DNA from: Methanotrichaceae archaeon
GTDB taxonomy: Archaea > Halobacteriota > Methanosarcinia > Methanotrichales > Methanotrichaceae
Direction: 5' to 3'
Length of the DNA stretch: 64,000 nt
NCBI GenBank assembly: GCA_963754945.1
Contig: CAVWIG010000007.1
Span: 1 to 64,000, forward strand
Part shown: piece by piece, positions 27,250 to 49,000 of the stretch
Position numbering within the stretch: position 1 is the stretch's first letter
How the letters are laid out: each line of letters starts with the position of its first letter
The notes under the pieces: generated by a model
The model's input: only the letters and a program-made list of their open reading frames with translations
Told to the model about the DNA's origin: nothing
The model's database searches: none
Made by a program: the position numbers and the translations under genes

Positions 27250-28534
27250 GAGAGTTTCGAAAAACTAATCAATCGAAATACTTATATACTATTAATATTA
27301 TAATATAATGCATGAGGACTCTCATTGATTTTGCCATTCGAGCAGAATATGCTCGAGTAAAAGCCCTCGGAGATGATCTATCCGAGATCGGATCGTTGAT
27401 CAATTGGGAGCGTTTCAGATTTTTGGAACCATTGATATACAAAAATAAAACTAGCCGCGGAGGTCGTCCGAACATTGACATCGTGATTATGGTGAAAGCT
27501 CTCGTAATTCAGCATTGGTTTGGTCTAACAGATCCAGAACTGGAGCGACAGGTTGCGGATAGGATCTCTTTTCGTATTTTCCTTGGCACCACTGAAGTAA
27601 TTCCTGATTTCAGCACAGTTTGGCTATTCCGTGAACGTTTGATTAAGTGCGACGTATACGATGATCTTTGGAATGAGCTTCAAAGGCAGCTCGATGAGAT
27701 GGGGTTTACTGTAAAGAATGGCACTATCCAGGATGCAACCTTCATAACTTCGGACCCAGGTCGGAAGAGGAACAAGAAAGACGAGCAAGGCGGGGACAAA
27801 AAGGAAGGTCAAGATTCCGAAGCCACCAGTACGAGCCTGAATCAGGAGTTTGATAAAGAGCTAATTGGTATTTCAAATAATATTATTGATGACAAGGCCA
27901 AACCACAGAGACTCGAAGAAGAGCCAATAAATGAGGGAAGTTGGGCAAAAAAGGGTGTCAAATCCTTTTTCGGATATAAAGGTCATATCTCAATCGATAC
28001 CAATTACCACCTTATCAGATATTTTGAGACTACAACTGCTTCTGTACACGATAGTCAGGTAGATCTTGGAATTGAAGGGCTACCACGTTACGCCGATAAG
28101 GGATATGATGGTGCAAAAACTCGAGGATATGATGCAGCCATGAAAAAAGCTACAAGAGGTCACAAGCTTGGAATCATAGATCTTCTGAGGAATAAGAGAA
28201 TCAGTAAAACGCGATCGCACATCGAAAGATGCTTCGCTGTTATGAAGCGGGGGCATAAGGGAGCACATGTTTATGTAACAACTGTCGCAAGAGCTGGAGT
28301 AAAATTCATGATGAATTCGGTCGTTTACAACCTGGAACAGTTGAAATATTTAGTGCATAAACAAACAGCCTAGCGGAAGCTCTCTAAAAAAGCGCAAAAA
28401 TTAGAAACAACAAGGTAAATTGAAATCTAATAAGCCAATTTAGGGGTGAAATATGCTAAAAAACCACTATAAAGATTGAAAATATTAACGCAAGAATTTA
28501 AGGCTTCATTAACCAACACTAAATCGAAACCCTC
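27250..28534 (+). mobile_element. IS5-family element, copy 2 (inverted relative to copy 1)
   Basis: Same 1285-bp element, GAGAGTTTCG...CGAAACCCTC. The flanks AATG and ACTA differ, so there is no TSD. At least one SNP relative to copy 1 lies upstream of the transposase. Confidence 0.92.
27312..28373 (+). CDS. IS5-family transposase
   Basis: Protein identical to 25653..26714 in the ORF track. Confidence 0.92.
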   Translation: MRTLIDFAIRAEYARVKALGDDLSEIGSLINWERFRFLEPLIYKNKTSRGGRPNIDIVIMVKALVIQHWFGLTDPELERQVADRISFRIFLGTTEVIPDFSTVWLFRERLIKCDVYDDLWNELQRQLDEMGFTVKNGTIQDATFITSDPGRKRNKKDEQGGDKKEGQDSEATSTSLNQEFDKELIGISNNIIDDKAKPQRLEEEPINEGSWAKKGVKSFFGYKGHISIDTNYHLIRYFETTTASVHDSQVDLGIEGLPRYADKGYDGAKTRGYDAAMKKATRGHKLGIIDLLRNKRISKTRSHIERCFAVMKRGHKGAHVYVTTVARAGVKFMMNSVVYNLEQLKYLVHKQTA

Positions 28535-29630
28535 ACTAGATATTAAAGGCAAGACCGTGGAGTTCGAGTCATTCCCGGTAGAGTATGCCGAAGTTTACGG
28601 GGTGCCCTTCTCTTTTATTCCGTGTGCGGGTACCACCGAGCAATTCATGCAGAAGGACGTTCATCGAGTGCGAGCCCTGGAGGAGCGAATTTCCTGTGAG
28701 ATTACTTTCCCACGGTTGCAGGGATACCGCTACGACCTGCCTAGTGAACATCTCACCGCTAAGTTTACTGAAGACTCGAATATGGCGATTTCAACGGAGA
28801 TGGTACCGAGCTGGACTGAGAACAAACCCATAATAGGTGAGTCGAGCCGTCATAATCTGGATGATCTGAAGAAACGAAGGCAACAGGAAGTAGCCTTCAA
28901 GCTGGCCAAGCTGATTTCAGAGAAATATTTCAAGGACGAAGAAGGGAGCACAAAGCCCTGGATATTCCCACAGCTCCTCAAGATAGCGAAGCAATGGTTG
29001 GAGGAGTGTGTGACCTGTAAGGATAACGCATTTCCTCAAATGCTCATGCTGGCAGAGCTGGCGTATGATGCGGCAGATAAGATCTACCAATCCATTGTGC
29101 GATCTGAGGAAGGCGAGAAGATGCTTAAGCCGATTCTTCGACCCTATGACTCCATCGGATCTACAAGATATGTGGACTTCGATACTACCAAGCCGGTTTA
29201 TGCAACAGACCCTAAGAAGTGCCATATTTCTCATGTGGTAGCGGATACGGAATCCTGGGAGCAAAGGACTGCCCAATCCCTGGAAGGGATGAATGAAGTT
29301 GTCTGCTATGTCAAGAACCAAAATCTTGGCTTCGCAATCCCTTATATCATCGGAGGAGATGAGAGGAACTACATCCCGGACTTCATTGTTAGAGTGAATG
29401 ACGGAAAAGAAGACCTGCTCAGCCTGATACTAGAAGTGAGTGGAGAGCAACGAAGAGACAAGGCTGCGAAGGTGGCCACCTCTAGGAACTTGTGGATTCC
29501 TGCGGTGAATAATGATGGTAGTTTTGGACGATGGGCTTTTCTAGAAATCTCAGATCCTTGGGATGTTCAGAATACTATCCGAGGAGAGCTGGATAGGATC
29601 AAGATAATTAGGGAGGAGGCGAGGGCATAA
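28535..29630 (+). pseudogene. Type III-like restriction endonuclease (BPTD_3080-like) C-terminal fragment
   Basis: EYAEVYGVPFSF, CHISHVVADTESWE, YVKNQNLGF, YIPDF...LILEVSG (PD-(D/E)xK-like) and WIPAVNN..GRWAF. The helicase half is missing and the ORF start lies inside IS5. Confidence 0.8.
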
Positions 29631-32488
29631 TGGCCAAGAGAAGAAGTGCAAGCTCGGTCAGTGATGCAACTCCTATAGAAAGCATCAAGCATAACGATAA
29701 GAGAACCAACATCCCAACAGAGGAGCTTCGCGGCTTCGTGGATGAGCAGGAAAAGAATCCTAAGAAGATCCTCTATCCACGAGACACCTCTTTAGATCCT
29801 CAGCTCGTCTGGAAAGGAAAGGATGAGCAGGACTTAAAGGATTTGGAGGTTCCTGCTGTTCCTATCTATATCCAAGAAAAGATACAGCCTCAAGCGATCA
29901 TTGAAGATGTACGGGCTGAGGCCAAGAAAGGTGCTCCTTCGCAGGCCACACTGTTCTCTGACTTCAACGGTATTAAGTTCGAGGATCTGGTGGATTTCTA
30001 TCGGCATGAGCAGAACTGGTCTAACCGAATGATTTTAGGGGATAGTCTACTGGTGACGACATCTCTTGCTGAAAAGGAAGGGATGAAGGGCAAAGTGCAG
30101 ATGATATATGTCGATCCACCTTATGGCATTAAGTTTGGGTCGAATTGGCAAGTCAGCACCAAGAGACGAGATATAAGGGATGGTAAGGCTGAGGATGTTA
30201 CACGACAACCAGAGCAGATAAAAGCCTTTAGAGATACATGGCGGCTTGGCATTCACTCTTATCTGAGCTACCTTCGTGATCGCTTAGTGGTAGCGCGAGA
30301 TCTATTATCCGAAAGTGGCTCGATTTTCATCCAAATAGGCGATGAGAACGTTCATTTGGTGCGTTGCATATTAGATGAAATATTTGGGTCTGAAAATTTC
30401 GCTAATGCCATCGCTGTTGAAAAGACAGGAGGAAAAAGCAGCGATTTATTAGATTCAATTTATGATACGATACTTTGGTATGCAAAGGATCTATCATCAG
30501 TCAAGTTTCGTCCGATTTTTACAGATAGAATCGGTTCAGAAACGCTAAAGAGATATAATCATTTGCAATTAGAATCCGGAGAAAATATAAAATTAACTAA
30601 GAAACAGATGCAAAACGAACAATCAATATCCGCGGGGAAAAGATGTGGAGATTACCCTTTACATTCTCAAGGAGAAACAAATACTGAAACCTCGAAAGTT
30701 TTTGTCTTCCAAAATAAGCAGTATTCCCCAAAGGCCGGACGACATTGGACTACATCAACAGATAGGATGCTAAGATTAGATCTTGCGGGACGAATAGTCC
30801 CGATTGTAACTGAAATACGGTATAAGCGGTTTGCTGATGATTTTCCCGTTGTACCTATAGACAATATATGGACGGGCATGATGATTGGCGTCGAACCGAT
30901 CTACATAGTTCAAACCGCAACCAAGGTCATCGAACGTTGCCTCTTAATGACCACAGATCCAGGCGACTTAGTTCTTGATCCCACCTGTGGCAGCGGAACG
31001 ACTGCCTATGTAGCTGAGCAATGGGGTCGTCGTTGGATTACAATTGATACGAGCAGAGTGGCTCTAGCCTTGGCTCGTACCCGACTTATGGCAGCGCGAT
31101 ATCCTTACTATCTCCTTGCGGACTCGCCAGAAGGCATAAAGAAAGTGGCAGAGATCACTGGACATGATCAGCATATCACTAAGACCGAGAGGGATATCAA
31201 GAAAGGTTTCGTTTACGAGCAAGTTCCTCATATCACATTAAAGTCAATCGCCAATAATCCCGAAATTGATGAGATCCACGAAAGATGGCAGGAAAGGCTA
31301 GAGCCCGTTCGCCAGGAGCTTAACTCTTTATTGATGCTGTCTTGGGCGGAATGGCAGATTCCAAGAGAAGCCGAGAATGACTGGCCAGAGACAGCCAAGG
31401 CTCTGCTCAAAGAATGGTGGCAACTAAGACAGGATAGACAGAAGGAGATAGATGCGGCCATAGCTCGCAATGCCGATACAGAACTGCTCTACGATCAACC
31501 ATATGAGGACAACAAGCGCATCCGGGTCACAGGTCCTTTCACCGTGGAAAGTTTATCACCACATCGTGTTCTTTCAACCGATGAGGCGCTACCAGCCTCA
31601 GAAGCAGAAGGACAGAAGGAGACTGCTGGCCATTTCGAAGCTATGGTTTCGGAGAACCTCAGGAAGGCAGGAATTCAGAATACCAAGAAAGGTGAGCGGC
31701 TTATATTCGATATCCTGGAACCTTACGCCGGCGCATGGATTCAGGCTGCAGGAGAGTACACAGCATCCGATGGACAAGTTAGAAAGGTTGCGGTCTCAAT
31801 AGGACCTGAGCATGGAACCGTAGGGCCGGATCAGGTCAAGGAAGCAGCCAAAGAAGCCGTTCAAGGAATGGGATTCGCTCTCCTAGTAGTCTGTGGCTTC
31901 GCCTTCGATCCTCACGTCTCAGAGGAGGCCAAACATTACGGCAAGCTGGATGTGCTGGTTACAAGGATGAACCCTGATCTAGCGATGGGCGAAGAGCTGC
32001 TCAAGAAGACAGGAGCTGGAAATCTGTTCATGGTCTTTGGCGAGCCGGATATTACCATCCATAGGATAAAGCCAGAGTCTCCAAAGGTCAAGCAGCCCAA
32101 ATGGCCGCCGCAAGAGGCTAAAGAGCCAGGAGAGCAGATTGTTGTCGAGATCAATGGCCTAGATATCTACGATCCTACAACAGGCGAGATAAGGAGCAGT
32201 TCGACAGATGACATAGCCTGCTGGTTCATTGATACCAACTACAATGAGGAGAGCTTCTTTGTGCGGCAGGCATATTTCACAGGAGCTGATGAGCCTTATG
32301 AGAAGCTTAAGAGAGCCTTGAGGGCCGAAATTGACGAGGAAGCTTGGTCAGCTCTTTATTCCACGAAAAGCATGCTGTTCGATATTCCCGAGACTGGGAA
32401 GATCGCGGTGAAGGTCATAAACCACTATGGCGATGAAGTGTTGAAGGTGTTTGAGGTCGGAAATCTTGACATAGGAGATCGGGGATGA
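29630..32488 (+). CDS. mod: Type III-like Mod adenine DNA methyltransferase
   Basis: VQMIYVDPPYG precedes VLDPTCGSGTT (beta class). It has an AT-rich central TRD and a C-terminal IAVKVINHYGDEV, and is coupled to the res fragment by a TAATG overlap. Confidence 0.9.
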   Translation: MAKRRSASSVSDATPIESIKHNDKRTNIPTEELRGFVDEQEKNPKKILYPRDTSLDPQLVWKGKDEQDLKDLEVPAVPIYIQEKIQPQAIIEDVRAEAKKGAPSQATLFSDFNGIKFEDLVDFYRHEQNWSNRMILGDSLLVTTSLAEKEGMKGKVQMIYVDPPYGIKFGSNWQVSTKRRDIRDGKAEDVTRQPEQIKAFRDTWRLGIHSYLSYLRDRLVVARDLLSESGSIFIQIGDENVHLVRCILDEIFGSENFANAIAVEKTGGKSSDLLDSIYDTILWYAKDLSSVKFRPIFTDRIGSETLKRYNHLQLESGENIKLTKKQMQNEQSISAGKRCGDYPLHSQGETNTETSKVFVFQNKQYSPKAGRHWTTSTDRMLRLDLAGRIVPIVTEIRYKRFADDFPVVPIDNIWTGMMIGVEPIYIVQTATKVIERCLLMTTDPGDLVLDPTCGSGTTAYVAEQWGRRWITIDTSRVALALARTRLMAARYPYYLLADSPEGIKKVAEITGHDQHITKTERDIKKGFVYEQVPHITLKSIANNPEIDEIHERWQERLEPVRQELNSLLMLSWAEWQIPREAENDWPETAKALLKEWWQLRQDRQKEIDAAIARNADTELLYDQPYEDNKRIRVTGPFTVESLSPHRVLSTDEALPASEAEGQKETAGHFEAMVSENLRKAGIQNTKKGERLIFDILEPYAGAWIQAAGEYTASDGQVRKVAVSIGPEHGTVGPDQVKEAAKEAVQGMGFALLVVCGFAFDPHVSEEAKHYGKLDVLVTRMNPDLAMGEELLKKTGAGNLFMVFGEPDITIHRIKPESPKVKQPKWPPQEAKEPGEQIVVEINGLDIYDPTTGEIRSSSTDDIACWFIDTNYNEESFFVRQAYFTGADEPYEKLKRALRAEIDEEAWSALYSTKSMLFDIPETGKIAVKVINHYGDEVLKVFEVGNLDIGDRG

Positions 32489-34498: not shown

Positions 34499-35602
34499 TT
34501 ATCTCCTCCTGGTTATGATAGACAGCACGTCGCCGTCGACTAGAGTGTGGTTGAGTCCTACTGATTGACCGGGGAACTTGGCGCTCTTCCCCCACACGAG
34601 AGAGTACCTGAATAGATCCACAAAATCCCTGTGAAGATGCTCGCAGACCGTTCTGACGGTCGAGCCATCAAGAATCACAAGGGGTTCGTCAAGATCTGCC
34701 TTTTCTCCCTTGGGTTTTAGGTAGACCCTTATGAAGCCAAGAGTGTCGTATATTGTCTCCTTCAGCTCTTCTATACCTTCTAAAGTTACTGCCGATACCC
34801 GGAGATAATCTCTGCCGATGGTTTCTTTGATCTTCTCTTCCACTCCGGTGTACCTCAGGTCGAACTTGTTTATGGCCACAACGCTTGGAATATAGACCCT
34901 GTTTCCTGCCAGGAAGTCGACTAGGCTGTCAGTGTCGATGTCCTCCCGAACGGTAACGTTGGCATTGACTATCCCGTATACGCGGATGATCTCTGCGATC
35001 TCATTCACCGTCATTTTTGTGAGCTGAACTGTGCTTCTGATGATTATGCCGCCCTTGGTCGCCTGGGTGATTGAGATGTCCGGAGGCTGCTTGTCCAGCC
35101 TGATGCCGGCGTCATAGAGTTCCCGCATTAGAATATCGAGTCGGTAGTTGAAGACGTCTCCCAGAAGAAGGATTATATCGGCAGCTCGAGCAGCGGTTAT
35201 GACTTCTCTCCCTCGGCCCTTCCCTCTGGCTGCTCCCTTGATCAACCCTGGCATGTCCAGGATCTGGATCTCGGCGCTCTTGTACTCCATGATTCCGGGT
35301 ATGACCTCTAGAGTAGTGAAATGGTACTCAGCCACCGCAGAATTCGCGCCTGTGAGGAGGTTGAGGAGGCTCGATTTTCCCGTGGAGGGGAAGCCTACCA
35401 GGGCTACGGTGGCATCACCTGACTTTTTGATGTAGAACCTTCTGCCCGTCCCGCCGCCTTTTACCTTCTGGAGCTCCTGCTGTGCCTTCAGTTTTGCGAT
35501 CTTGGCCTTCAGCTTTCCTATGTGGTGCTCAGTGGCCTTGTTCTTCTGAGTTTTGAGGATCTCCTCTTCTATCTCCTTGATCTGTTCCTCGATGGTTGCC
35601 AT
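34499..35602 (-). CDS. drg: DRG/OBG-family GTPase with TGS domain
   Basis: KTQKNKATEHHIG, GFPSTGKS, YHFTTLE, DMPG, NKFD and WGKSAKFPGQ.VG. Confidence 0.95.
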   Translation of the reverse strand: MATIEEQIKEIEEEILKTQKNKATEHHIGKLKAKIAKLKAQQELQKVKGGGTGRRFYIKKSGDATVALVGFPSTGKSSLLNLLTGANSAVAEYHFTTLEVIPGIMEYKSAEIQILDMPGLIKGAARGKGRGREVITAARAADIILLLGDVFNYRLDILMRELYDAGIRLDKQPPDISITQATKGGIIIRSTVQLTKMTVNEIAEIIRVYGIVNANVTVREDIDTDSLVDFLAGNRVYIPSVVAINKFDLRYTGVEEKIKETIGRDYLRVSAVTLEGIEELKETIYDTLGFIRVYLKPKGEKADLDEPLVILDGSTVRTVCEHLHRDFVDLFRYSLVWGKSAKFPGQSVGLNHTLVDGDVLSIITRRR

Positions 35603-35865
35603 TTATCATCCTGCTCTATCCTGGAGCCGTTTTATTGGATTGGCTTGCGATCCAGGTATCAGAAGCTCTAATTGGGGGAGGATCTTTTGAGTTTTCACCT
35701 TTATAAGGTGATGCTTTTCCGGATGCCTTTCGGATTTAGGATTACGTTTCCAGAGCGGGTGCAAGACATAGATAGGGCCGATATTAGCTCTACATGAAAA
35801 AAACAGCTTTATTCTAGGGTAGATTAGCGGAATGTGGCGGTATGAGAGTCGGTTTATCGCCCGTA

Positions 35866-35914
35866 CCGGGCAGGTTTGGGGGACTTATCCCTCCTTCCTC
35901 CTCACCTGCCCTGG
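35866..35914 (+). promoter_or_regulatory. GC-rich hairpin in the probable 5' leader of the curli-like gene
   Basis: GGGCAGGT (35868-35875) pairs with ACCTGCCC (35904-35911). A BRE/TATA-like AAAAAAAACAGCTTTTATT lies at about 35797-35813. Confidence 0.45.
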
Positions 35915-35964
35915 GATCTGAAACAGAAAATCAACTGAACGGTGAACTTAGTGGAGAGTGAAAG

Positions 35965-36687
35965 ATGAGAATTACAGCAATTACAATAATGGTGATGCTC
36001 TTACTGGCATCCTCAGCATCAGCAGGAAACGTTGTAAAGCAGAGCATCGATATGTCAGCCCGCGGCGGCCAGATCAGCCAGAGCGCGGCCAACGCTGCGG
36101 TAGTTTCCGGCAACAATAATTACGTGAGCCAGGGTGTCTCCCAGGCCGCCAGGGGAAGCCAGATCACTCAGAGCGGAGCTAACGCTGTGGTTGTAGTAGG
36201 AAGCGGTAACACAATAATACAGGGAGTGGATCAGAAGGCCAGAGGCAACAACATCGCCCAGAGCGGAGCCAATGCCTTGGCTGTGCTTGGCAACGATAAC
36301 TACGCCAACCAGCAGGTCGCTCAGGGAGCCTACGGGAGCAACATCTTCCAGAACGGCTGGAACACGGGCTCGATTACCGGAGACGGGAACACTCTTGTCC
36401 AGGGATTGCTGTCCATTGCAAAGACCTACACCAACAATACCAGTCAGACCATGAGAAACACAGCATACATCACCGGCTCCTACAATCAGGTTAATCAGCA
36501 GGTCTCGGGCGTCGTGCTCACAGGCACTAGCAACGCGCCAGTAATTCAAACGGGCAGCAACTTCGGTCAGACCCTTGATCGTAACTCCAATCAATTCGAA
36601 CAAAACACGAAGCTGAAGGCCAAGGGCGGACACAAGGGAAATGTTTTGCAGCACGGCGCGAATGAGGTGAGAATTGGGCCAATATGA
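35965..36687 (+). CDS. Secreted Q/N/G-rich beta-repeat (curli/Fap-like) protein
   Basis: Signal peptide ending ASA-G, then six full repeats of about 30 aa with consensus Q-x3-N-x5-G-x2-N-x3-Q. The DNA period is 90 bp (36079, 36169, 36259, 36349). Confidence 0.8.
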   Translation: MRITAITIMVMLLLASSASAGNVVKQSIDMSARGGQISQSAANAAVVSGNNNYVSQGVSQAARGSQITQSGANAVVVVGSGNTIIQGVDQKARGNNIAQSGANALAVLGNDNYANQQVAQGAYGSNIFQNGWNTGSITGDGNTLVQGLLSIAKTYTNNTSQTMRNTAYITGSYNQVNQQVSGVVLTGTSNAPVIQTGSNFGQTLDRNSNQFEQNTKLKAKGGHKGNVLQHGANEVRIGPI

Positions 36688-36698
36688 ATGTATTTAAT

Positions 36699-36727
36699 GG
36701 GCATCCACGACTTTTTTTAGGGTGCCC
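36699..36727. terminator. Hairpin between convergent genes
   Basis: GGGCATCC...GGGTGCCC enclosing a T7 tract. Confidence 0.4.
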
Positions 36728-36761
36728 TATCGCTGCTTGGTTATCAGCACCATTTTGGGTG

Positions 36762-38099
36762 TCAGCCTAATCTTCCCCATGTTTTTCCCGAAGAATCGAT
36801 TCCGTAATCGCCTTCATCGATGTCTCCTTGAACATCAGTGGCCACCCTGACGTGATACACCTTATCCCGAGCAGCTCCTGTGGTTGTTATTAGTATAACC
36901 TTACTTCCACCCGCCAGTACTTTACGATCCTGCTTCTCGAAATCATCTTTTGATTTCGGATCGACTATATCCGTTTTGTCGTCCTTTCCTTCTATGGAAA
37001 TCTTTTCAACTGTGACATTATATTTCTTGTTTGCATTTAATACGTTTATCTTCACCTCGGTATCGGTATTAAGCTTAGGAAAATCAACACCAAGTATTCT
37101 AATCCCGCCAGTTATTCCCATCATGTTGGTCATCATGCGCCTGTACTCTCTATCGCCTATATCTCCCAAGGCGTACCTTAAACTAACAATCTCTTCGGCT
37201 TTGAGCGGTGTGGGGGAGCCATCTTTGGTAGGATTCATCAGATTCTTCAAATAATCCTTCACTTTATCATCGGTCTTGTTATTCTCCCAGGCGCGGCTGC
37301 CAAAGTAGAAGAGGATAATGACGACGAAAACGTAGAGGAAGTTATTTGTGAAACTCGCCAGGGCACTCTCGGGAATAACATCAACATTGCCTGCCGTAGA
37401 ATTTCCGCCTAGGGAAATCTTACCTGAAGACCCATTAATAATCAGGGGTGTGAACTTGAAAGTGAATCCAGAGACGTTGGTCGCCTCAAATCCTCCATTT
37501 GTGCCCGTCAGGTTGAACGTGAATATATGTTCTCTTTCTACAGAATTCTTTTCTGTTAATTTCTCGTGAAGAGATACACTGCTAAATGCTGCGCTGGTCT
37601 TGTTATCCTTGGGTCCCAGGATGGAAGGACTGTTAAAGGAGACCACTAGGAGGATTATGTACACTATCGTCAGGGATATGACTATGGCTTTTCTGATCTC
37701 ACCGCTATCAAGCCTCGATCCAAGGTTGACTTTGGACGAAATAGCCAGGACCAATGGCACAGAGAGGCCTATGATGCCCGCCAGAGATACGATCAGGAAG
37801 TCGGCCTTTTGCCCATGAAAGGCAAGGGCGAATGCTATCGCGATCATCGCTATTAATACCATCAAAATATCGCTGTTGCTGAAATCGCTGTTGTCGTCGT
37901 CCGCCTTTTCCTTAATGGCTGCAAAAATTGAGATGATCATGCTCCCTAATATTATAAACCCGAAAGGAGTCCAATCCTTCCACTCCTCTACGTTAAGGAG
38001 GTGTCTATAGCTAATAGCAATAATTGCAGAACTAAGAACAAGCCATATCCAAAGAGACTTTGTTTTCAATAAGCTAAGATCTAGAGACATTTCGGCCAT
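36762..38099 (-). CDS. Multi-pass membrane protein with a SHOCT-like motif
   Basis: About six TM helices, GEIRKAIVISL, VIILFYFGSR and a SHOCT-like EEIVSLRYALGDIGDREYRRMM. Confidence 0.7.
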   Translation of the reverse strand: MAEMSLDLSLLKTKSLWIWLVLSSAIIAISYRHLLNVEEWKDWTPFGFIILGSMIISIFAAIKEKADDDNSDFSNSDILMVLIAMIAIAFALAFHGQKADFLIVSLAGIIGLSVPLVLAISSKVNLGSRLDSGEIRKAIVISLTIVYIILLVVSFNSPSILGPKDNKTSAAFSSVSLHEKLTEKNSVEREHIFTFNLTGTNGGFEATNVSGFTFKFTPLIINGSSGKISLGGNSTAGNVDVIPESALASFTNNFLYVFVVIILFYFGSRAWENNKTDDKVKDYLKNLMNPTKDGSPTPLKAEEIVSLRYALGDIGDREYRRMMTNMMGITGGIRILGVDFPKLNTDTEVKINVLNANKKYNVTVEKISIEGKDDKTDIVDPKSKDDFEKQDRKVLAGGSKVILITTTGAARDKVYHVRVATDVQGDIDEGDYGIDSSGKTWGRLG

Positions 38100-40284: not shown

Positions 40285-40926
40285 TTAACCTTTCAGTTCA
40301 TCCCGTGCAATGTGGTGCTCTCCCTCGCTGTCGTGGACAATGCAGGCTCCACTCTTCGTAGGACTGCCTCTCTCGAAATCCGTGTACCTTTCCAGAAGGG
40401 CAATGGCCTCCTGGATCTCAGTTATGCTTCTATTTATCACCTGGGCTGCAATCCTCTCCGCCTCGTCTGAGTCGATCTTCTTGCCCAAGCCTCTGCATTC
40501 CGAGCAGCGTAGTGTTCCTTCATCGAGATAAAAGGGATAAGTCTTGCATAGCATTGGCCGTGACTGATAGATTTTGCATCCCTTTATGGAGTGGAACTTG
40601 CATGATTCTCCATCCTTTTTTATTCGCCACTCCAGGGTATGGAAATTTCCCCGGCTATCCCATTCACCGATTTTGGGAGGCTCTACGGCATCCAGCCAAC
40701 CCATGACCGTTGCGGCTAGAATTTTCCTGATCTCAAAGGGGAAGAGGACCACACTGTTATCCGCTCCGGCACAGCAATCTCCACAGCGGAGACACTCAAA
40801 ACCGATGGCCCTGATCTGAGAGGCTACATGCTCGATCGAGACCCTTTTTGCTGCTTCTAGGCTTTTGCGTAGTTCTTCTTGCCGCTCATCCCTCAGCTTT
40901 TTTGAGTTCTGCTTTTCGCCGATCAT
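40285..40926 (-). CDS. YkgJ/FliB-family Cys-cluster protein
   Basis: FECLRCGDCC and CKIYQSRPMLCKTYPF. ATG at 40926 overlaps the guaAA stop codon. Confidence 0.88.
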   Translation of the reverse strand: MIGEKQNSKKLRDERQEELRKSLEAAKRVSIEHVASQIRAIGFECLRCGDCCAGADNSVVLFPFEIRKILAATVMGWLDAVEPPKIGEWDSRGNFHTLEWRIKKDGESCKFHSIKGCKIYQSRPMLCKTYPFYLDEGTLRCSECRGLGKKIDSDEAERIAAQVINRSITEIQEAIALLERYTDFERGSPTKSGACIVHDSEGEHHIARDELKG

Positions 40927-41857: not shown

Positions 41858-42946
41858 TAGGACTTACGCAGTTGAATCTTTCGACAATGAATAATAAGGA
41901 TATTTTATATATTCGCGAATTGACTCGCGAATAATTCTTCGCTTAGATTCGAACCAACTTATTCCTATTCTAAGCCTTTCTACTTCTAATCTGAGAAACG
42001 CTCTCAGGGAGAACATTATGTGTGCTCTCTGGGACTGACTTTTTCTTGCTTGACAGCTTTCGACTCCACAGAATTGCTTTATGCCTCTGTGATATTCCTC
42101 AATCTTCCAGGAATATCCACCAAATTTTTCGCGTTTAGCTTCGTCTATCTCCAGCACGTCAGTTGCCCAGTATCCTATGTCACCGTCATTAGAGACTATC
42201 CGGAATACTTTTATAAAACCATAAGCTTTTAAATGCACTTCCCTGCCTTGCAGCGGTATCTCTATCTCCTGAATTTGCATATTTTTGGTGTTATTCGGAT
42301 TCACTAGCCTATTTTTCTTCAATCGGGTCAGCCAGTGCCATCCAGACTTTCGTATGGTTTTGAGATTATCTACACTGGCATACCAGCTATCGAAGAGAAC
42401 AATACAGGGCTGAAAACGCCGTTCTTTTGCTTTGGCAAGCATATCTCGAAAATGATCATTTTTTGTCTTGCCGTCGACATCTATATCGTAGATTCGGAAA
42501 TCAACGGGAATTATAGCGTTTCCATCTGTCCACAGCAACGTACAAATATTGATTCCATTCACCAATCGATGCTGTTTTCCACTCCATTGATGATAGACTA
42601 GGCTCATATTTTTAGCATATGGCTTGTCCAACGTCGTATCGTCAATAACCAAGAAACCATTTTGAGGCTGAACAATATCCTTTACCTCATTCCACAACGT
42701 ATCCGTATCTGGAGGCTGTCTTTGTAGAAGACGGGTAAATGCATCATGCGATGGACTATTTTCTCCTACTGGCTGGCACCTTGCAGCCTCAGTACAGGTA
42801 AAAACATCTACTGATGCTATCAGAAAGTGAATATAATCAAGATCATCGCACTTGGAAGGATTCAAGTTCAGCCCTATCCCATTTATTTGTTGGTATTAAT
42901 ATAGCATATGCAATATAAGAAGATTCTGCCAAGTGCGTAAGTCCTA
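41858..42946 (-). mobile_element. IS701-family insertion sequence (1089 bp)
   Basis: Perfect 13-bp TIRs TAGGACTTACGCA / TGCGTAAGTCCTA, with a 5-bp TSD AACGT at 41853-41857 and 42947-42951. Confidence 0.92.
41864..42865 (-). CDS. IS701-family transposase
   Basis: SHDAFTRLL, VIDDTTLDKPYA, LFDSWYAS and WKIEEYHRGIKQ. The stop codon lies inside the TIR. Confidence 0.92.
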   Translation of the reverse strand: MNPSKCDDLDYIHFLIASVDVFTCTEAARCQPVGENSPSHDAFTRLLQRQPPDTDTLWNEVKDIVQPQNGFLVIDDTTLDKPYAKNMSLVYHQWSGKQHRLVNGINICTLLWTDGNAIIPVDFRIYDIDVDGKTKNDHFRDMLAKAKERRFQPCIVLFDSWYASVDNLKTIRKSGWHWLTRLKKNRLVNPNNTKNMQIQEIEIPLQGREVHLKAYGFIKVFRIVSNDGDIGYWATDVLEIDEAKREKFGGYSWKIEEYHRGIKQFCGVESCQARKSQSQRAHIMFSLRAFLRLEVERLRIGISWFESKRRIIRESIREYIKYPYYSLSKDSTA

Positions 42947-43036
42947 AACGTGAAAAAAAGCTACTTAAATCCTGGTTGTTAAGTCAGTGGTATGGATCTG
43001 TTGAGTGTAACCGGAATAGTGAAAGGAGAGTGAGGT

Positions 43037-46000
43037 ATGTCAAATCCTAAAGAGAGGACTCTATTTAATAAAGACTATAAAAAATTAAATATGCATAGGT
43101 ATAACGATTTATTGCTTCTATCATCCGTGATAGCTATTTTTGGGATTCTGCTAGCCCTATCTGTCTCGGCTCAGCCGGCACTCGATAACTTATCATTGCC
43201 CGGTTCTGCCGCCTCTGTTGGGGGACCAACCAACTTGCCGCCGATAGCCGAGAGCTTGACGCCTGACAAGCCAAGCGGACAGGGTGTGGCCGGAGATGCG
43301 ATAACATGGACCGCTAAGGCAACCGATCCAGAACCGGAGGATCAGCTGCTGTACATGTTCAGACTCAATGGGCCATCGACGGATAATACTTGGAAGGATG
43401 TAACAAAATGGGGAGACAATAATAGCTGGGTATGGCAGACTTCCGATGTGGGCGCAGGCCAATACCAGATAGAGGTCTGGGTAAGGGATGGAAAGCACGC
43501 CGGAAGCGAAGGCTACGACGCCAAGATGTCCGCGAGCTACACGCTATCGGCTCCTGAAAAGAAAATCTCCCAGGCACCACAGCAGATTGCCCCTCCCGGA
43601 CAGGTTACGCAGCAACCCAGCACACCAACTCAACCAACAAATGCGCCGCAGGTAGAGAACAAGCCACCGAAATTGACTGATCTGCGACCCGACAAGGCCA
43701 GCGCACAGGCCGGTCAAGTAATAACCTGGACTGCCATGGCAACCGATCCGGAACCGGCAGACCAGTTGCTCTACAAGTTCTGGCTGACTGGGCCTTCGAC
43801 CAGCGGCCAGATTGTGGATAAAACCGGCTGGATACCTGACAATACCTGGACTTGGACTACAACATCAGACGACGTGGGAAACAACCAGGTCGAGGTCTGG
43901 GTGAGGGATGGAAATAATGCTGGCGAGAATAGCTTCGACGATAAATTATCTAGGACGTTTGTTGTAGAATCCGCTCCTTCAGAGATACCAGTTAAGGTTC
44001 CCCCTGGAATACCTGCACCCGGCCCGGTGGTCCCAGCACCAGCAACGCCGACACCCGGACCAATTGTCAACAACATGCCGCCTGTTTTGAGCGGCCTAGC
44101 TCCCGATAAATCCAGTGTGGAGGCTGGAGCCAATGTGATCTGGACGGCTACAGCCTCCGATCCGGAGAGCGACCCGTTGGTCTACAAGTTCTTCTTGAAG
44201 GGTCCAGCAACCGGCGGCCAACTGGCTGAAAAGACTGCCTGGGTATCAGACAACACCTGGACATGGACTACCACGCCAGCCGATGCCGGCCAAAACCAGG
44301 TTGAAGTCTGGGTGAGAGACAACAAGCACGCCGGACCAGATAGCAAGGACGACAGCGCGGACGCATCCGTCGCTGTGACCAAACCGAATCAAAAGCCCAC
44401 CATAACAGGGCTGTCTCCAGACAAAGCTAGCGCAGAGGCAGGCTCTACTGTGACCTGGACTGCAGTCGCAACAGATCCCGAGAACGACCCGTTGGTCTAC
44501 AAGTTCTTCTTGAAGGGACCAGCAACCGGCGGCCAACTTGCCGAAAAGACTGCCTGGATATCCGACAACACCTGGACATGGACTACCACGCCAGCCGATG
44601 CCGGCCAAAACCAGGTTGAAGTCTGGGTGAGAGACAACAAGCACGCCGGACCAGATAGCAAGGACGACAGCGCGGACGCATCCGTCGCTGTGACCAAACC
44701 GAATCAAAAGCCCACCATAACAGGGCTGTCTCCAGACAAAGCTAGTGCAGAGGCAGGCTCTACTGTGACCTGGACGGCTACAGCCTCCGATCCGGAGAAC
44801 GACCCGTTGGTCTACAAGTTCTTCTTGAAGGGTCCTGCAACCGGCGGCCAACTGGCTGAAAAGACTGCCTGGGTATCAGACAACACCTGGACCTGGACTA
44901 CCACACCAGCCGATGCCGGCCAAAACCAGGTCGAGGTCTGGGTAAGGGACGGCAATCATGCAGGGACAGAAGGGTTCGACGCCAACTTGGTCGTCAACTA
45001 TGAGTTAACTCAGCCAGCCCCCAAACCAACGACCCTCGTTTTGCCAGTCCAGGCACCAACTAATATCACTCCCGCTGGAAATGCGATTCCAACGCCGGCG
45101 GTCGTCAACAAGCCTCCAGTGGTGAACAGCCTAACACCAGACAAAACCAGTCCTCAGCTTGCCGGAACAGCAATAACCTGGACCGCAGTCGCAACCGATC
45201 CTGAAAAAGAAGACACAATCCTCTACAAGTTCTTCCTGAAGGGACCCAGCACCGGAGACCAGTGGTCTCAAGTAGCCGATTGGGGAACTGACAGCTTCTG
45301 GGCCTGGAACACTTCTGCAAAGGACATTGGCGATAACCAGGTACAGGTATGGGTAAGAGACGGAAAGAACGCTGGTCCCGATGGCGAGGACGCTAGTTTG
45401 GTCTCGAACGTCTTCGTCATAAATGCGCCGAAACCAAAGCCTCCAGTACAGCCTCTTGTGCCCGAGGTCCAACCTGTAACAATACACGCTAACATAACGC
45501 CTGCGGAGAACAAGCCGCCGGTGATCAACAGCCTGACGCCCGATCAACCCAGCCCGCAGTACGCAGGAGCGGTAGTAACCTGGACGGCTGCAGCAACGGA
45601 CCCTGAGAACGATCCGTTGCTCTACAAGTTCTTCTTAAACGGACCCGCGACAGGAAATCAGTGGAAGGAGCAGACCGGTTGGGTCTCTGAAAACATCTGG
45701 CGCTGGACAACATCTTCGAAGGATGTAGGTAGCAACCAGGTTATGGCGTCAGTCAGGGACAACAAACACGCCGGTCCAGAGGGTTCAGCCGGCAACGTCA
45801 CTGTGGATTACGTCATCAATGCTACAGCTCCGGCGCCATTGCCAAAGCCCATCGAGGTTGACAAGCCACCAGTTGTGAACAGCATAACGCCAGACAAAAC
45901 CAGCCCACAGTATGCAGGGACGGTAGTTACCTGGACTACTACAGCATTCGATCCGGAGAACGATCCTCTGGTTTACAAGTTCTTCCTAAAGGGGCCCAGC

Positions 46001-49000
46001 ACCGGCAATAATTGGGCACAGAAGACAGAGTGGGGCCCAGACAGCACCTGGATATGGAATACTACCTCCAAGGACGTTGGCGCTAACCAGGTAAGAATCT
46101 GGGTCAGGGACGGCAAACACGCTGGCCCGGAGGGTTCGGACAGCAACGCCACAGCGGATTATACCATAAATGCAACCGCGCCAACGCCAAAGCCCATCGA
46201 GGTTAACAAGCCACCGGTGGTGGACAGCCTCACGCCAGACAAAACCGGCCCACAGTTCGCAGGAACGGTAGTAACCTGGAAGGCTGTCGCAACCGATCCA
46301 GAGAATGATCCTCTGCTCTACAAGTTCTTCCTGAGCGGACCTGTCACGGGGGATAAGTGGACAGAGGAGACAAAATGGGTCTCCGGCAACACATGGGTCT
46401 GGCCGACTTCTGCTAAGGACGTGGGGCCCAACCAGGTAAGAGTCTGGGTAAGAGACGGTAAGCACGCTGGTACGGACAGCTCGGACAGCAACGCTACGGC
46501 GAATTATACCATCAACGCCACAGCACCGGCACCATTGCCAAAACCAGCACCTATCGAGGTCAATAAACCTCCAGCAGTGACCAGTCTGGCACCAGACAAA
46601 ACCAGTCCTCAATATGCAGGCACTGTCGTGACCTGGAAGACCATCGCAACCGACCCAGAGAACGACCCCCTGGTCTACAAGTTCTTCCTAAAGGGGCCCA
46701 ACACCGGCAACAATTGGGCGCAGAAGACAGAGTGGATCCCAGAGAGCACCTGGATATGGAATACTACGACTAAGGACGTTGGCGCTAACCAGGCAAGGGT
46801 CTGGGTCAGAGATGGTAAACACGCTGGACCAGAAGGCTCGGACAGCAACGCCACAGTCGATTACACCATAAATGCAACCGTGCCGGCGCCGAAGCCCAAA
46901 CCGCCTGTCATCAATGAGACTAAACCGCCTGCAGTCAACGAGACAAAGCCAGCGCCAATCAATGTGACGCCAGCGATCAACGTTACTCCGGCAAAGCCTG
47001 CTCTGGCCCCTACAGCAACGGTCAACCTTCCTCCTGTGGCGAATAGCATCGTTCCGGACAAGCTCAGCCCACAGACTCCGGGCACATCCATAATCTGGAC
47101 TGCCAATGCCACCGACCCGGAGAAGGACAAAATACTCTACAGGTTCTTCCTCAACGGGCCCTCAACTGGGGGGTCCTGGAAGGCCGAGACTGATTGGTCG
47201 AATGCTGGCTCCTGGACGTGGACCACTTCCAAATCCGACGTGGGCTCCAACCAGGTCAGAGTGTGGGTGAGGGACGGCAATCACTCCAAGGAGGACAGCT
47301 TCGACGGCGAACAGGTCGCCTTGTTCACCATCAAGGAGGTTTCGAGGAACATCTCAGGAGTGAAGTTCAACGACTTAAACGGTAACGGTGTAAAGGATTC
47401 GGGCGAGCCAGGGCTGGTTGGCTGGACGATCAAGCTGACCATGCCAAGCGGCAGCGAAGTCAGCACCCTCTCCGGTCAGGACGGATCTTACAGGTTCGAG
47501 AACCTAGCGCCAGGAGCTTACACTGTGAGTGAGGTCTCGCAGGCAGGCTGGTCGGCCACAGCTCCCGTGGGCGGATCACAAAAAGTCACCTTGGCAAGCT
47601 CCGATGTGAGCGACATGAACTTTGGAAACAAAGCTGTCACGTTCTCAATTTCAGGAAAGAAGTTCAACGACCTGAACGACAATGGAATAAATGACGGAGA
47701 ACCTGGGCTTGCCGGCTGGACTATCAACCTGGAGCAGCCCGCCGGAAAAGTGATCAAGACCGTGATCACTGCCGCGGACGGCTCGTATAAATTCGAGAAC
47801 CTGACTCCAGGAGATTACGCATTGAGCGAGGTTGCCCAGAAAGGATGGACGCAGACAGCACCATCCGGTGGGTCCTACTCCGTCAGCGTGAAAGACGCTG
47901 ATGTAACAGGTAAGGACTTCGGCAACAACGCCGGTTCCTGGTCGATCACTGGTACGGCATTCCAGGATCTTAACGGCAACGGAAAGAAGGATGCTGGTGA
48001 CCCAGGCTTGGTAGGATGGAAGATCCAGCTATCCCAGAACGGCAATGTGGTCAACGTCACCGACACAGGAGCCGACGGCTCTTATGCCTTCAGAAAACTG
48101 GCTCAGGGAACGTACACCCTCAGCGAGGTGCCCCAGAGCGGCTGGGTCCAGACCCTCCCTGCCAGCGGCTCTTACTCGGTGAATCTGAAGAACGCCGACG
48201 TTTCAGGCATGGACTTCGGCAACAAGGGCAACCTGTCCATCTCGGGCATGAAGTACTACGATCTGAACGGCAACGGAGTGCAGGACAAGGACGAACCCGG
48301 AATCCCGGGACAGACCGTTACTCTGCTTGAGAATGGCAAAGAGATAGCCACTACCACCACAGGGCAGGATGGAGGATACACCTTCAACAACTTGGTACAG
48401 GGAACCTACACCGTCAACGATCCACCATCGGGTGGCTTCGTCCTAACAACTACATCATCGATTACGGTGACCGTCACGACGTCGGTGGTACTACACGCTA
48501 GCTTTGGACTGACGGGAACCCACTCCATATCAGGGGTGAAGTTCAACGATGTCAACGGCAACGGCGTGATGGATTCGGGTGAGCCCGGCGTACCCGGATG
48601 GGGCATGGTGCTGGACGGGACCACGGCCCTCTTTGGGATCCACATTACCCGCACCGTCAACACAGCCTCCGACGGCTCGTACATCTTCGACCACCTCGTC
48701 CCTGGCACGTACAAGATCAGCGAGCTATCGAGGCCAGGATGGACACAGACGCTTCCATCCGGTACTGGAACCTACACTGTCAACCTCGGAGGTAGCGATG
48801 TTGCCAACAAGAACTTCGGCAACCGGGTTGTGAATCCGCCCGGCACGGCTTCCATCTGGGGCATGAAGTTCAATGACCTAGACAACAATGGGGTAAACAA
48901 TGGCGATCCCGGCTTGCCGGGATGGACCATAGTTCTGAAAAACACCATCACGACCGCGACCAGCACCACGACCACCGACGCCCAGGGCTGGTACAGCTTC

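Follow-up and report, generated by a model that had tools for sequence, protein, structure and literature searches.

The gene described here lies in a window of 64,000 nucleotides (nt), the whole stretch of DNA that was analyzed, corresponding to positions 1 to 64,000 of the forward strand of contig CAVWIG010000007.1 (assembly GCA_963754945.1) of a Methanotrichaceae archaeon. An earlier note on this DNA had singled out positions 35797-36727 as encoding a candidate curli- or Fap-like functional amyloid. This span runs from a promoter to a T-run, and its sole long conserved open reading frame (ORF) is the coding sequence at 35965..36687 (+), which encodes 240 amino acids (aa), with the stop codon at 36685-36687 included in the coordinates. 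We refer to it as the solenoid gene, after the predicted fold of its product. The gene is real: 33 homologs were detected at E <= 0.01, the alignment contains 49 invariant columns, and parts of the gene are covered by contigs from peat RNA libraries. A 199-aa antisense ORF inside the coding sequence is a by-product of the repeat composition. A Shine-Dalgarno-like element, GGAGAGTGA (35953..35961 (+)), read from the sequence, ends 3 nt before the ATG, and elements of the GGGG/GGTGAT type occur at the equivalent place in all aligned leaders. Downstream, a T7 run at 36712..36718 (+), 25 nt past the stop codon, is likely an archaeal oligo-T terminator, judging from its sequence.

Residues 1-20 (MRITAITIMVMLLLASSASA, followed by GN; 35965..36024 (+)) form a Sec-type signal peptide with cleavage after ASA. 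The call was made by eye, from the residues and their conservation in the alignment. On inspection, the segment has the n-, h- and c-regions of a Sec/signal peptidase I signal, i.e., a basic n-region, a hydrophobic h-region and an A-x-A site (here A-S-A), and it lacks a lipobox, a twin-arginine and a class III motif. The signal peptide is kept in all full-length relatives of a 31-sequence alignment. The mature chain of 220 residues (22 kDa) is composed of 13.6% G, 13.2% N, 10.9% Q, 10.0% A, 9.5% V and 9.1% S, to name the most prominent residues, and contains 0 Cys and 2 Pro. Its C-terminus (...NEVRIGPI) has no transmembrane segment and no sorting motif, and no extra domain is found in the chain. 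The earlier note had described a stand-alone gene with a Sec signal whose mature product is nearly all Q/N/G repeats, free of Cys and of an anchor and poor in Pro; this description is correct, and the repeat strings quoted in it are found exactly in the translation.

In the autocorrelation of the mature part, identity is 0.29 at lag 30 and 0.26 at lag 60, the only two peaks, all other lags being at or below 0.15. Of 5000 shuffled sequences, none attained 0.289 over lags 5 to 79; the top shuffle had 0.205. The repeat register spans the whole mature chain and amounts to seven turns of 30-34 aa, counting half turns at both ends. The consensus of the repeat unit is SGANAxxVxGxxNxxxQxxxQxAxGxxIxQ, and its N, G, N, Q and Q columns are preserved in each unit. 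The mature chain begins on a strand (N-x-V-x-Q-x-I-x-M-x-A-x-G..I-x-Q) within an opening half-turn (residues 21-39; 36025..36081 (+)). Three canonical turns of 30 aa each follow, as defined by register and autocorrelation (residues 40-129, divided into 40-69, 70-99 and 100-129; 36082..36351 (+)), and then three degenerate turns, which have longer arcs and measure 32, 34 and 34 aa (residues 130-229, divided into 130-161, 162-195 and 196-229; 36352..36651 (+)). The latter carry the conserved residues W132, Y168, Y173 and P192, a basic loop (KLKAKGGHKG) and, near 157-160, an N-x-T sequon that is present in 20 of the 31 family members. Finally, the chain terminates on a canonical strand in the closing half-turn HGANEVRIGPI (residues 230-240; 36652..36684 (+)), without a cap or an anchor. 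Neighboring repeats, compared by eye, have 17 of 30 residues in common. Each strand of a 30-34-aa unit contributes about six positions to the core. Strand A is conserved at every other position (N, Q, Q, A, G) and not between them, and from this alternation we infer a core of Q/N ladders and small A/V/I residues. Strand B (ITQSGANAVVVVG) is conserved at nearly every position, which indicates a second conserved surface of small T/S/A/V residues.

Based on two monomer models from AlphaFold2 (AF2), the mature protein is confidently predicted to form a flattened beta-solenoid of seven turns, with two sheets, two strands per turn and open ends. Model 1, calculated with a 31-row alignment, has a mean predicted local distance difference test (pLDDT) score of 91.3 and a predicted template modeling (pTM) score of 0.83. 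Model 2, calculated for a Methanocrinis ortholog (47% identical; 37-row alignment), has a pLDDT of 90.5 and a pTM of 0.82. In model 1 the signal segment is the only helix, with low pLDDT, and the rest is beta structure. Secondary structure assignment with DSSP treats residues 53-78 of this model as one unbroken strand, which is resolved into two strands and arcs in model 2; there, each turn has a first strand of 11 and a second of 13 residues, followed by arcs of 2 and 4 (G-x-x-N) residues, respectively. Both models lack a helix or loop cap, and the mature N-terminus and the C-terminus fall within the repeat register. The conservation pattern described above supports the solenoid model independently. 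The two models thus agree on what had been proposed earlier, a two-sheet beta-solenoid without a capping domain and with a distinct 30-aa repeat.

An exhaustive structural aligner returned an identical ranking order for both models. The beta-helix cores of SufB/SufD/SmsB (9h78_B, 4dn7_B, 1vh4_A, 5awf_A) were found at the top, with Z 16.7-17.6 and a root-mean-square deviation (rmsd) of 2.5-2.9 A over 199-204 residues. Next came CsgA of Pontibacter (8c50_A; Z 14.3 and 15.3, rmsd 8.2 and 7.8 A over 155 and 159 residues) and the CsgA fibril of E. coli (8enq_A; Z 12.2 and 12.4, rmsd about 8 A over 109 residues). Other beta-helices, namely adhesins, repeats-in-toxin (RTX) blocks, RsaA and antifreeze proteins, had Z <= 10.5 with various rmsd values and lengths. 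Foldseek found nothing in the PDB at E <= 0.001, and no look-alike in the ESM Atlas scored up to 0.8. As modeled, the protein has a geometry nearer to that of the SufB/SufD beta-helix than to that of CsgA. SufB and SufD act in Fe-S assembly in the cytoplasm, with SufC as a partner, and have helical domains at both termini. The solenoid resembles them in its flattened helix with two strands and ~30 residues per turn, which superposes over ~200 residues at 2.5-2.9 A (for a description of the Suf proteins, see PMC6006206).

The 33 relatives were retrieved from 5.8 billion proteins searched and are mostly 226-279 aa long; those with names belong to Methanotrichaceae, Methanosarcinales or Methanocrinis. 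When 1.84 billion cluster representatives were searched exhaustively with HMMER, 24 matched at E <= 0.001. Distant matches have the signal peptide and the repeat style in common with the solenoid family, and three of the distant relatives from the exhaustive search are longer (P0038, P0044 and P0054; 441-462 aa). In P0038, P0041, P0042 and P0050, blocks of Q/N/G repeats flank a non-repeat middle domain of ~150 aa (..YNDxxQxLxxxExYPxG..HKLRAEGSxSG..), which matches no Pfam family. The word-indexed search found no fused or longer forms, which is weak evidence for their absence. P0021 has one additional 30-aa repeat. Neither NCBIfam nor Pfam contains a model for the solenoid family.

A profile scan of Methanotrichaceae gave a match in 35 of 105 genomes, representing 14 of 16 genera, and in 26 of the 64 genomes of high quality; a full-length ortholog at E < 1e-60 is present in 24 of the 105. 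In a sample of the phylum, 11 of the 12 genomes from the same family (this genome excluded) had a match, and the scan of 388 genomes in 35 other families gave none. Within the genome samples scanned, the solenoid family is found only in Methanotrichaceae. The gene is single-copy in this genome and usually so across the family. Among copies in metagenome-assembled genomes (MAGs), that of L013 looks frameshifted and that of G003 is split. Sequencing runs holding the sequence are labeled as peat, freshwater, soil and bioreactor metagenomes, runs with a small share not having been used for naming habitats.

Our preferred reading, to which as a whole we give not quite an even chance, is that of a Methanotrichaceae-specific, Sec-exported and unanchored structural protein, an open-ended solenoid that most likely self-associates outside the cell. 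The gene would be transcribed from a strongly conserved promoter, yielding a long leader that starts with a hairpin. After removal of the signal peptide, the 220-residue chain would fold into the seven-turn flattened two-sheet solenoid, and extracellular copies would associate end to end by beta-strand augmentation, perhaps side by side too, giving fibers or a layer on the sheath or envelope. Two features make self-association the most likely outcome: the helix is open at both ends, and the residues on the outside of strand B (T/S/A/A/V/V) are conserved to the same degree as those of the core. With no outer membrane to cross, the archaeon would not require machinery dedicated to secretion or nucleation. 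Further, the helix of SufD becomes twice as long when the protein homodimerizes, as stated in PMC6006206, and thus a flattened helix of this geometry is able to stack end to end. Also in favor of this reading are the 49 invariant columns, the restriction to one family, the stable position beside the DRG GTPase gene, the RNA-library contigs over the leader and parts of the coding sequence, and a promoter that is shared with other surface-protein genes. The protein may self-polymerize and be of amyloid nature, and we consider it a good candidate for an archaeal extracellular fiber or envelope protein.

Several observations weigh against this interpretation. The gene is absent from 70 of the 105 family genomes, and from 38 of the 64 high-quality ones, and can consequently not be an essential sheath component. 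No nucleator-like paralog exists in this genome, where the gene is single-copy. Structurally, the protein is matched most closely by a cytoplasmic domain that is soluble and does not form fibrils, and the flattened-helix geometry alone hence does not imply an amyloid. Unlike CsgA, which has a net charge of -6, the solenoid protein has one of +6. Its degenerate C-terminal turns, with their aromatic residues and basic loop, could act as a specialized binding end or a soft cap, and a specific partner would explain the conservation of both strand B faces no less well than self-packing does. According to PMC10192328, shallow alignments can lead AF2 to flip the handedness of repeats of this kind; in our models, handedness and the exact state of the end rungs are provisional. 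Last, contigs from 4 peat metatranscriptome runs, which cover 35847-36167 and 36379-36681 at 90-99% identity, indicate presence of the sequence in these libraries but are not a mapped transcript, and their depth cannot rank expression.

The main rival, which we regard as less likely than not and still quite possible, is a secreted beta-helix that does not polymerize and works as a monomer or small oligomer, i.e., as an adhesin or scaffold rather than as a fiber subunit. It would bind the sheath, the surface layer (S-layer), a polysaccharide, a mineral or a partner cell through the flat T/S/A/V face or the aromatic C-terminal turns, and the conservation of both strand B faces and of the C-terminal aromatics W132, Y168 and Y173 is what such a function would lead one to expect. 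A stable non-fibrillar helix as the top structural match points in the same direction, as do the matches at Z 8-10, which include adhesin and autotransporter passengers and the S-layer protein RsaA. In addition, a weak DUF11-like surface-protein gene adjoins the solenoid gene in 8 of 19 related loci, and the patchy distribution, with 70 of 105 genomes lacking the gene, fits an accessory surface factor. However, a protein of this kind would have both ends uncapped and would lack an anchor, and a composition of Q/N ladders is what self-stacking repeats typically show. Regular solenoids without caps usually join end to end into aggregates.

Homology to SufB/SufD rather than convergence, with the solenoid as an exported descendant of their beta-helix core, is very unlikely. 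The agreement of two independent models at Z 16.7-17.6 and rmsd 2.5-2.9 A over ~200 residues, with an equal turn of ~30 residues, would favor such a descent, and archaeal SufB/SmsB chains are among the top structural matches. Nevertheless, the structural alignments with SufB/SufD contain 7-13% identical residues, and the SUFBD Pfam family is absent from the match lists of both the query (E <= 10) and the 31 members (E <= 1). The 17/30 identity of neighboring repeats implies recent internal duplication of a single unit. Helical end domains as in SufB/SufD do not occur in the models, in which the signal peptide is the sole helix, a SufC context is missing as well, and AF2 may have borrowed geometry learned from solved SufB/SufD structures. 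The solenoid further differs from SufB/SufD in that it is exported, consists of the beta-helix only, is Q/N-rich and has recently duplicated repeats.

The solenoid protein shares many properties with CsgA and CsgB, the subunits of curli. It is Sec-exported, consists almost entirely of repeats, is rich in Q, N, G, S and A, has no Cys, and is predicted to be a two-sheet strand-arc-strand solenoid with G-containing arcs, Q/N columns and open ends. In composition it comes near to mature CsgA of E. coli, with 13.2% N against 12.2%, 10.9% Q against 8.4% and 9.1% S against 9.2%, and neither protein contains Cys. True membership in the curlin family, as a very distant CsgA/CsgB relative transferred to or retained in archaea, is suggested by this composition and the curlin-like G-x-x-N arcs, by the UniRef name of the relative P0031, which begins with 'Curlin associated repeat-c...', and by the CsgA structures ranking directly behind the SufB/SufD chains; all the same, we consider it close to refuted. 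The Curlin_rpt model (PF07012) matches neither the query (E <= 10) nor any of the 31 members (E <= 1), a six-frame scan of the genome with PF07012 did not match the solenoid gene, and a repeat scan of P0031 itself, P0033 and P0030 found nothing at E <= 10. With hhalign, the 31-sequence family alignment received a probability of 0.76% against CsgA of E. coli K-12 and of 0.48% against CsgB, and the BLASTP E-value is 5.1. Searches of PDB sequences with the protein and the profile found no CsgA or FapC chain; solely 3ult was listed at E <= 10.

The repeats themselves differ, too. The curlin repeat comprises ~23 aa and contains the kernel N-$-Psi-$-Psi-$-Q-X-G-X-X twice, as given in PMC10192328. 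This kernel is missing from the solenoid, where the half-unit N-x-Psi-x-Psi-x-G-x-x-N resembles motif a minus the closing Q. In contrast to curlin, a turn of the solenoid takes 30-34 aa, its strands are 11 and 13 residues long with six core positions each, and superposition leaves an rmsd of about 8 A. Moreover, the single-copy gene has no CsgB-like nucleator beside it, and the host is an archaeon without an outer membrane. No csg or fap-like genes were found near the solenoid gene, and CsgG (PF03783) was not found in the 87.7%-complete genome; the earlier statement that such machinery is missing nearby is therefore confirmed. A family relation to curli or to Fap is not supported. The repeat protein FapC of Pseudomonas is likewise secreted, and it builds a functional amyloid of beta-solenoid type, but its chain 9u4u_A, at Foldseek rank 5, is an insignificant match (E 0.19, TM-score 0.08-0.11) and no fap operon is present. 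We conclude that the solenoid is a convergent analog of curli chemistry on a SufD-like helix geometry and not a curlin homolog. Curli are known as fibers; the solenoid protein would form them.

An ice-binding or antifreeze-like beta-roll protein is scarcely credible, since the sub-threshold LbR_Ice_bind matches in 8 of the 31 members (E <= 1, best E 0.0053), the detection of 3ult by both sequence (E 4.4) and structure (Z 8.5-8.7) and the flat T/S/A/V face, as in ice-binding proteins, stand against a query score of 8.6 bits at a gathering cut-off of 30, a structural match with an rmsd of 7.6-7.8 A, and an occurrence in 14 of 16 genera from varied habitats, including alkaliphilic Methanocrinis cultures, that makes a cold-specific role unlikely. 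Like the solenoid protein, the ice-recrystallization-inhibition beta-roll of Lolium perenne (PF21300, 3ult) is small and uncapped and has flat faces of small residues; unlike it, it has a different repeat length, and the matches stay below threshold.

Upstream of the solenoid gene, a conserved BRE/TATA-like promoter motif (BRE, transcription factor B recognition element), ACATGAAAAAAACAGCTTTAT with the pattern AYRTGARRAAWANNNNTTTAW, is located at 35792..35812 (+). A looser form, TGA[AG][AG]AA..TTTA[ATG], is found in the window and in 18/18 related loci with enough upstream DNA (L015 is truncated), and the motif is kept even for orthologs whose proteins are only 45-50% identical. Between the TATA element and the ATG lie about 97-185 nt, some automatically chosen ATGs being too far upstream. 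For the gene in the window the leader is roughly 125 nt long. The RNA-library contigs begin at 35847, 35875 and 35884, and 35688-35828 is uncovered, which fits a transcription start near 35835-35845 and proves nothing.

Two hairpins are predicted in this leader. The 5'-proximal one (GGCGGUA..loop GAGAGUCGG..UAUCGCC; 35834..35862 (+)) is part of the minimum free energy (MFE) structure, and the six closest loci preserve its stem, in which all changes are one-sided. For the second, GC-rich hairpin (GGGCAGG..GGGGGA..CCCUCC..CCUGCCC; 35866..35914 (+)) the MFE and centroid structures agree; analogous GGGAGGG/CCCTCC hairpins exist in other loci at positions that cannot be aligned. Folding of 12 of 20 leaders gave negative z-scores throughout, at or below -2 in 7 of the 12. 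RNAalifold detected only 12 and 5 weak pairs with at most 1 compensatory change, supporting the first hairpin only, and that one with no double compensatory changes; a conserved global structure of the leaders was not shown. No Rfam family matches the window at 35500-36900 or the five module loci. The earlier note had considered the leader structured and suggestive of post-transcriptional control. The conserved 5' hairpin in a leader of ~125 nt bears out the first part. On the other hand, the window's own leader folds no better than shuffles (z -0.40; 62 of 200 shuffles fold at least as well), and the element is a shared module, not a switch specific to the solenoid gene.

Of the 105 family genomes, 58 contain the promoter pattern, at 1-4 sites each and 102 sites in total; the reversed control occurs at 8 sites in 5 genomes. 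A second exact copy in this genome lies on contig 8 at 40615-40635 (+) (locus L030, 1501-1521), with no ORF downstream. When 32 sites in 31 loci were classified, 7 preceded genes of the solenoid family, 7 preceded a gene for a secreted protein of ~445 aa with three immunoglobulin (Ig)-like repeats, 17 were 'orphans' with no downstream ORF of about 100 aa or more, and 1 remained in another class. The ~445-aa protein (L045, L049, L051 and L053-L056, genus g12) has Ig-like repeats of ~110 aa (..DPDGDQIxYRFWLKGPSTG..WTASNRWTW..), and its gene is divergent from a DUF11-like gene. Many of the orphans (L030 plus 16 in L031-L059) are convergent to the 3' end of a gene for a DUF11-like protein or a DRG GTPase. 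After the TATA element, orphan sites and sites of the solenoid-family type both continue with GGCGG..AGGnGAGTGGG..TCGCC and then with GGGAGGG/CCCTCC hairpins; orphan copies could represent a Methanotrichaceae-specific family of small RNAs or antisense RNAs.

In the window, a copy of the motif with one mismatch is found at 42948-42968 (+), the chance expectation being 0.32 matches per window at up to 2 mismatches. It lies 69 nt upstream of the gene for a surface protein of 2873 aa (43037-51658 (+)), which has SdrD_B, CarboxypepD_reg, SpaA and Big_9 domains and a Shine-Dalgarno sequence, GGAGAGTGAGG, resembling that of the solenoid gene. The leader is one copy of a family-wide promoter plus 5'-RNA module tied to surface-protein genes. 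As the module is common to other surface-protein genes, co-regulation of the solenoid gene with the cell envelope is suggested.

Methanothrix and its relatives are sheathed and count among the major acetoclastic producers of methane; filament, aggregate and syntrophic contacts are controlled by their surface structures. In the literature consulted, the sheath protein MspA is the only known envelope amyloid of the Methanothrix group, and PMC6242892 describes the spacer-plug proteins of the related sheathed Methanospirillum as still unidentified. MspA of Methanothrix thermoacetophila and Methanospirillum is extracellular and amyloid-like, and resembles the solenoid protein in its export by a signal peptide and its location outside an operon. 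It has 40-61 kDa and ~80-aa imperfect repeats and builds the sheath hoops (PMC6242892, PMC10470525). By description rather than sequence comparison, the solenoid protein differs from it in its mature size of 22 kDa, its 30-aa repeat and its absence from most family genomes. A literature search on Methanothrix amyloid or curli, MspA, archaeal curlin repeats and the granule matrix found no account of the family, with most subscription journals outside its coverage.

The furthest-reaching interpretation is that the protein is the first, independently evolved curli-type amyloid of Archaea, a solenoid with 30-residue turns that polymerizes into envelope fibers or a coat without nucleator, chaperone or channel, within an envelope regulon marked by a lineage-specific promoter and 5'-hairpin module that also exists free-standing and possibly non-coding. 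In this full form we consider it rather unlikely. The family is small, easy to express and lineage-specific, and places curli-like chemistry on a different, wider helix. If the protein polymerizes, amyloids built as Q/N-ladder solenoids arose independently in archaea and assemble without accessory genes, and a new scaffold for engineered protein materials would be available. If it does not, it still represents an unannotated family with a confidently predicted fold and an unusually conserved promoter/leader module.

The 19 related loci all come from MAGs of the Methanotrichaceae type or Methanocrinis cultures. In the window, the solenoid gene is surrounded by genes for a DRG GTPase, a membrane ORF, FMN (flavin mononucleotide) reductase and Thg1. 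A DRG-family GTPase gene lies divergently upstream in 9 of the 19 loci, and a block of FMN reductase, Thg1, CxxCxxCC and GATase genes follows downstream in 5. The DUF11-like homologs that adjoin the solenoid gene are directly divergent from it in L006, L009, L012 and L014 (487 aa in L009), and their product is a possible functional partner of the solenoid protein. In the window, the corresponding protein is P0057 (33208-34242 (-); 344 aa), a secreted or membrane protein that carries a hydrophobic anchor at the N-terminus and a linker rich in S and N, and matches DUF11 below threshold (E 0.0016). The membrane ORF (36762-38099 (-)), a multi-pass protein of 445 aa without a Pfam family, is convergent to the solenoid gene. 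It was rejected as a partner, having a counterpart in none of the 19 related loci, and accordingly represents an insertion in this lineage.

The region is flanked by DDE transposase genes at 27312-28373 (+) (DUF772/DDE_Tnp_1) and 41864-42865 (-) (DDE_5), and a gene for an N6_N4 DNA methylase of 952 aa is located at 29630-32488. The palindromic sequence TCACCTTTATAAGGTGA at 35695-35711 is kept as CCCTTTATAAG in L002, L004, L005 and L013 and probably serves the divergent DRG GTPase gene as its TATA element.

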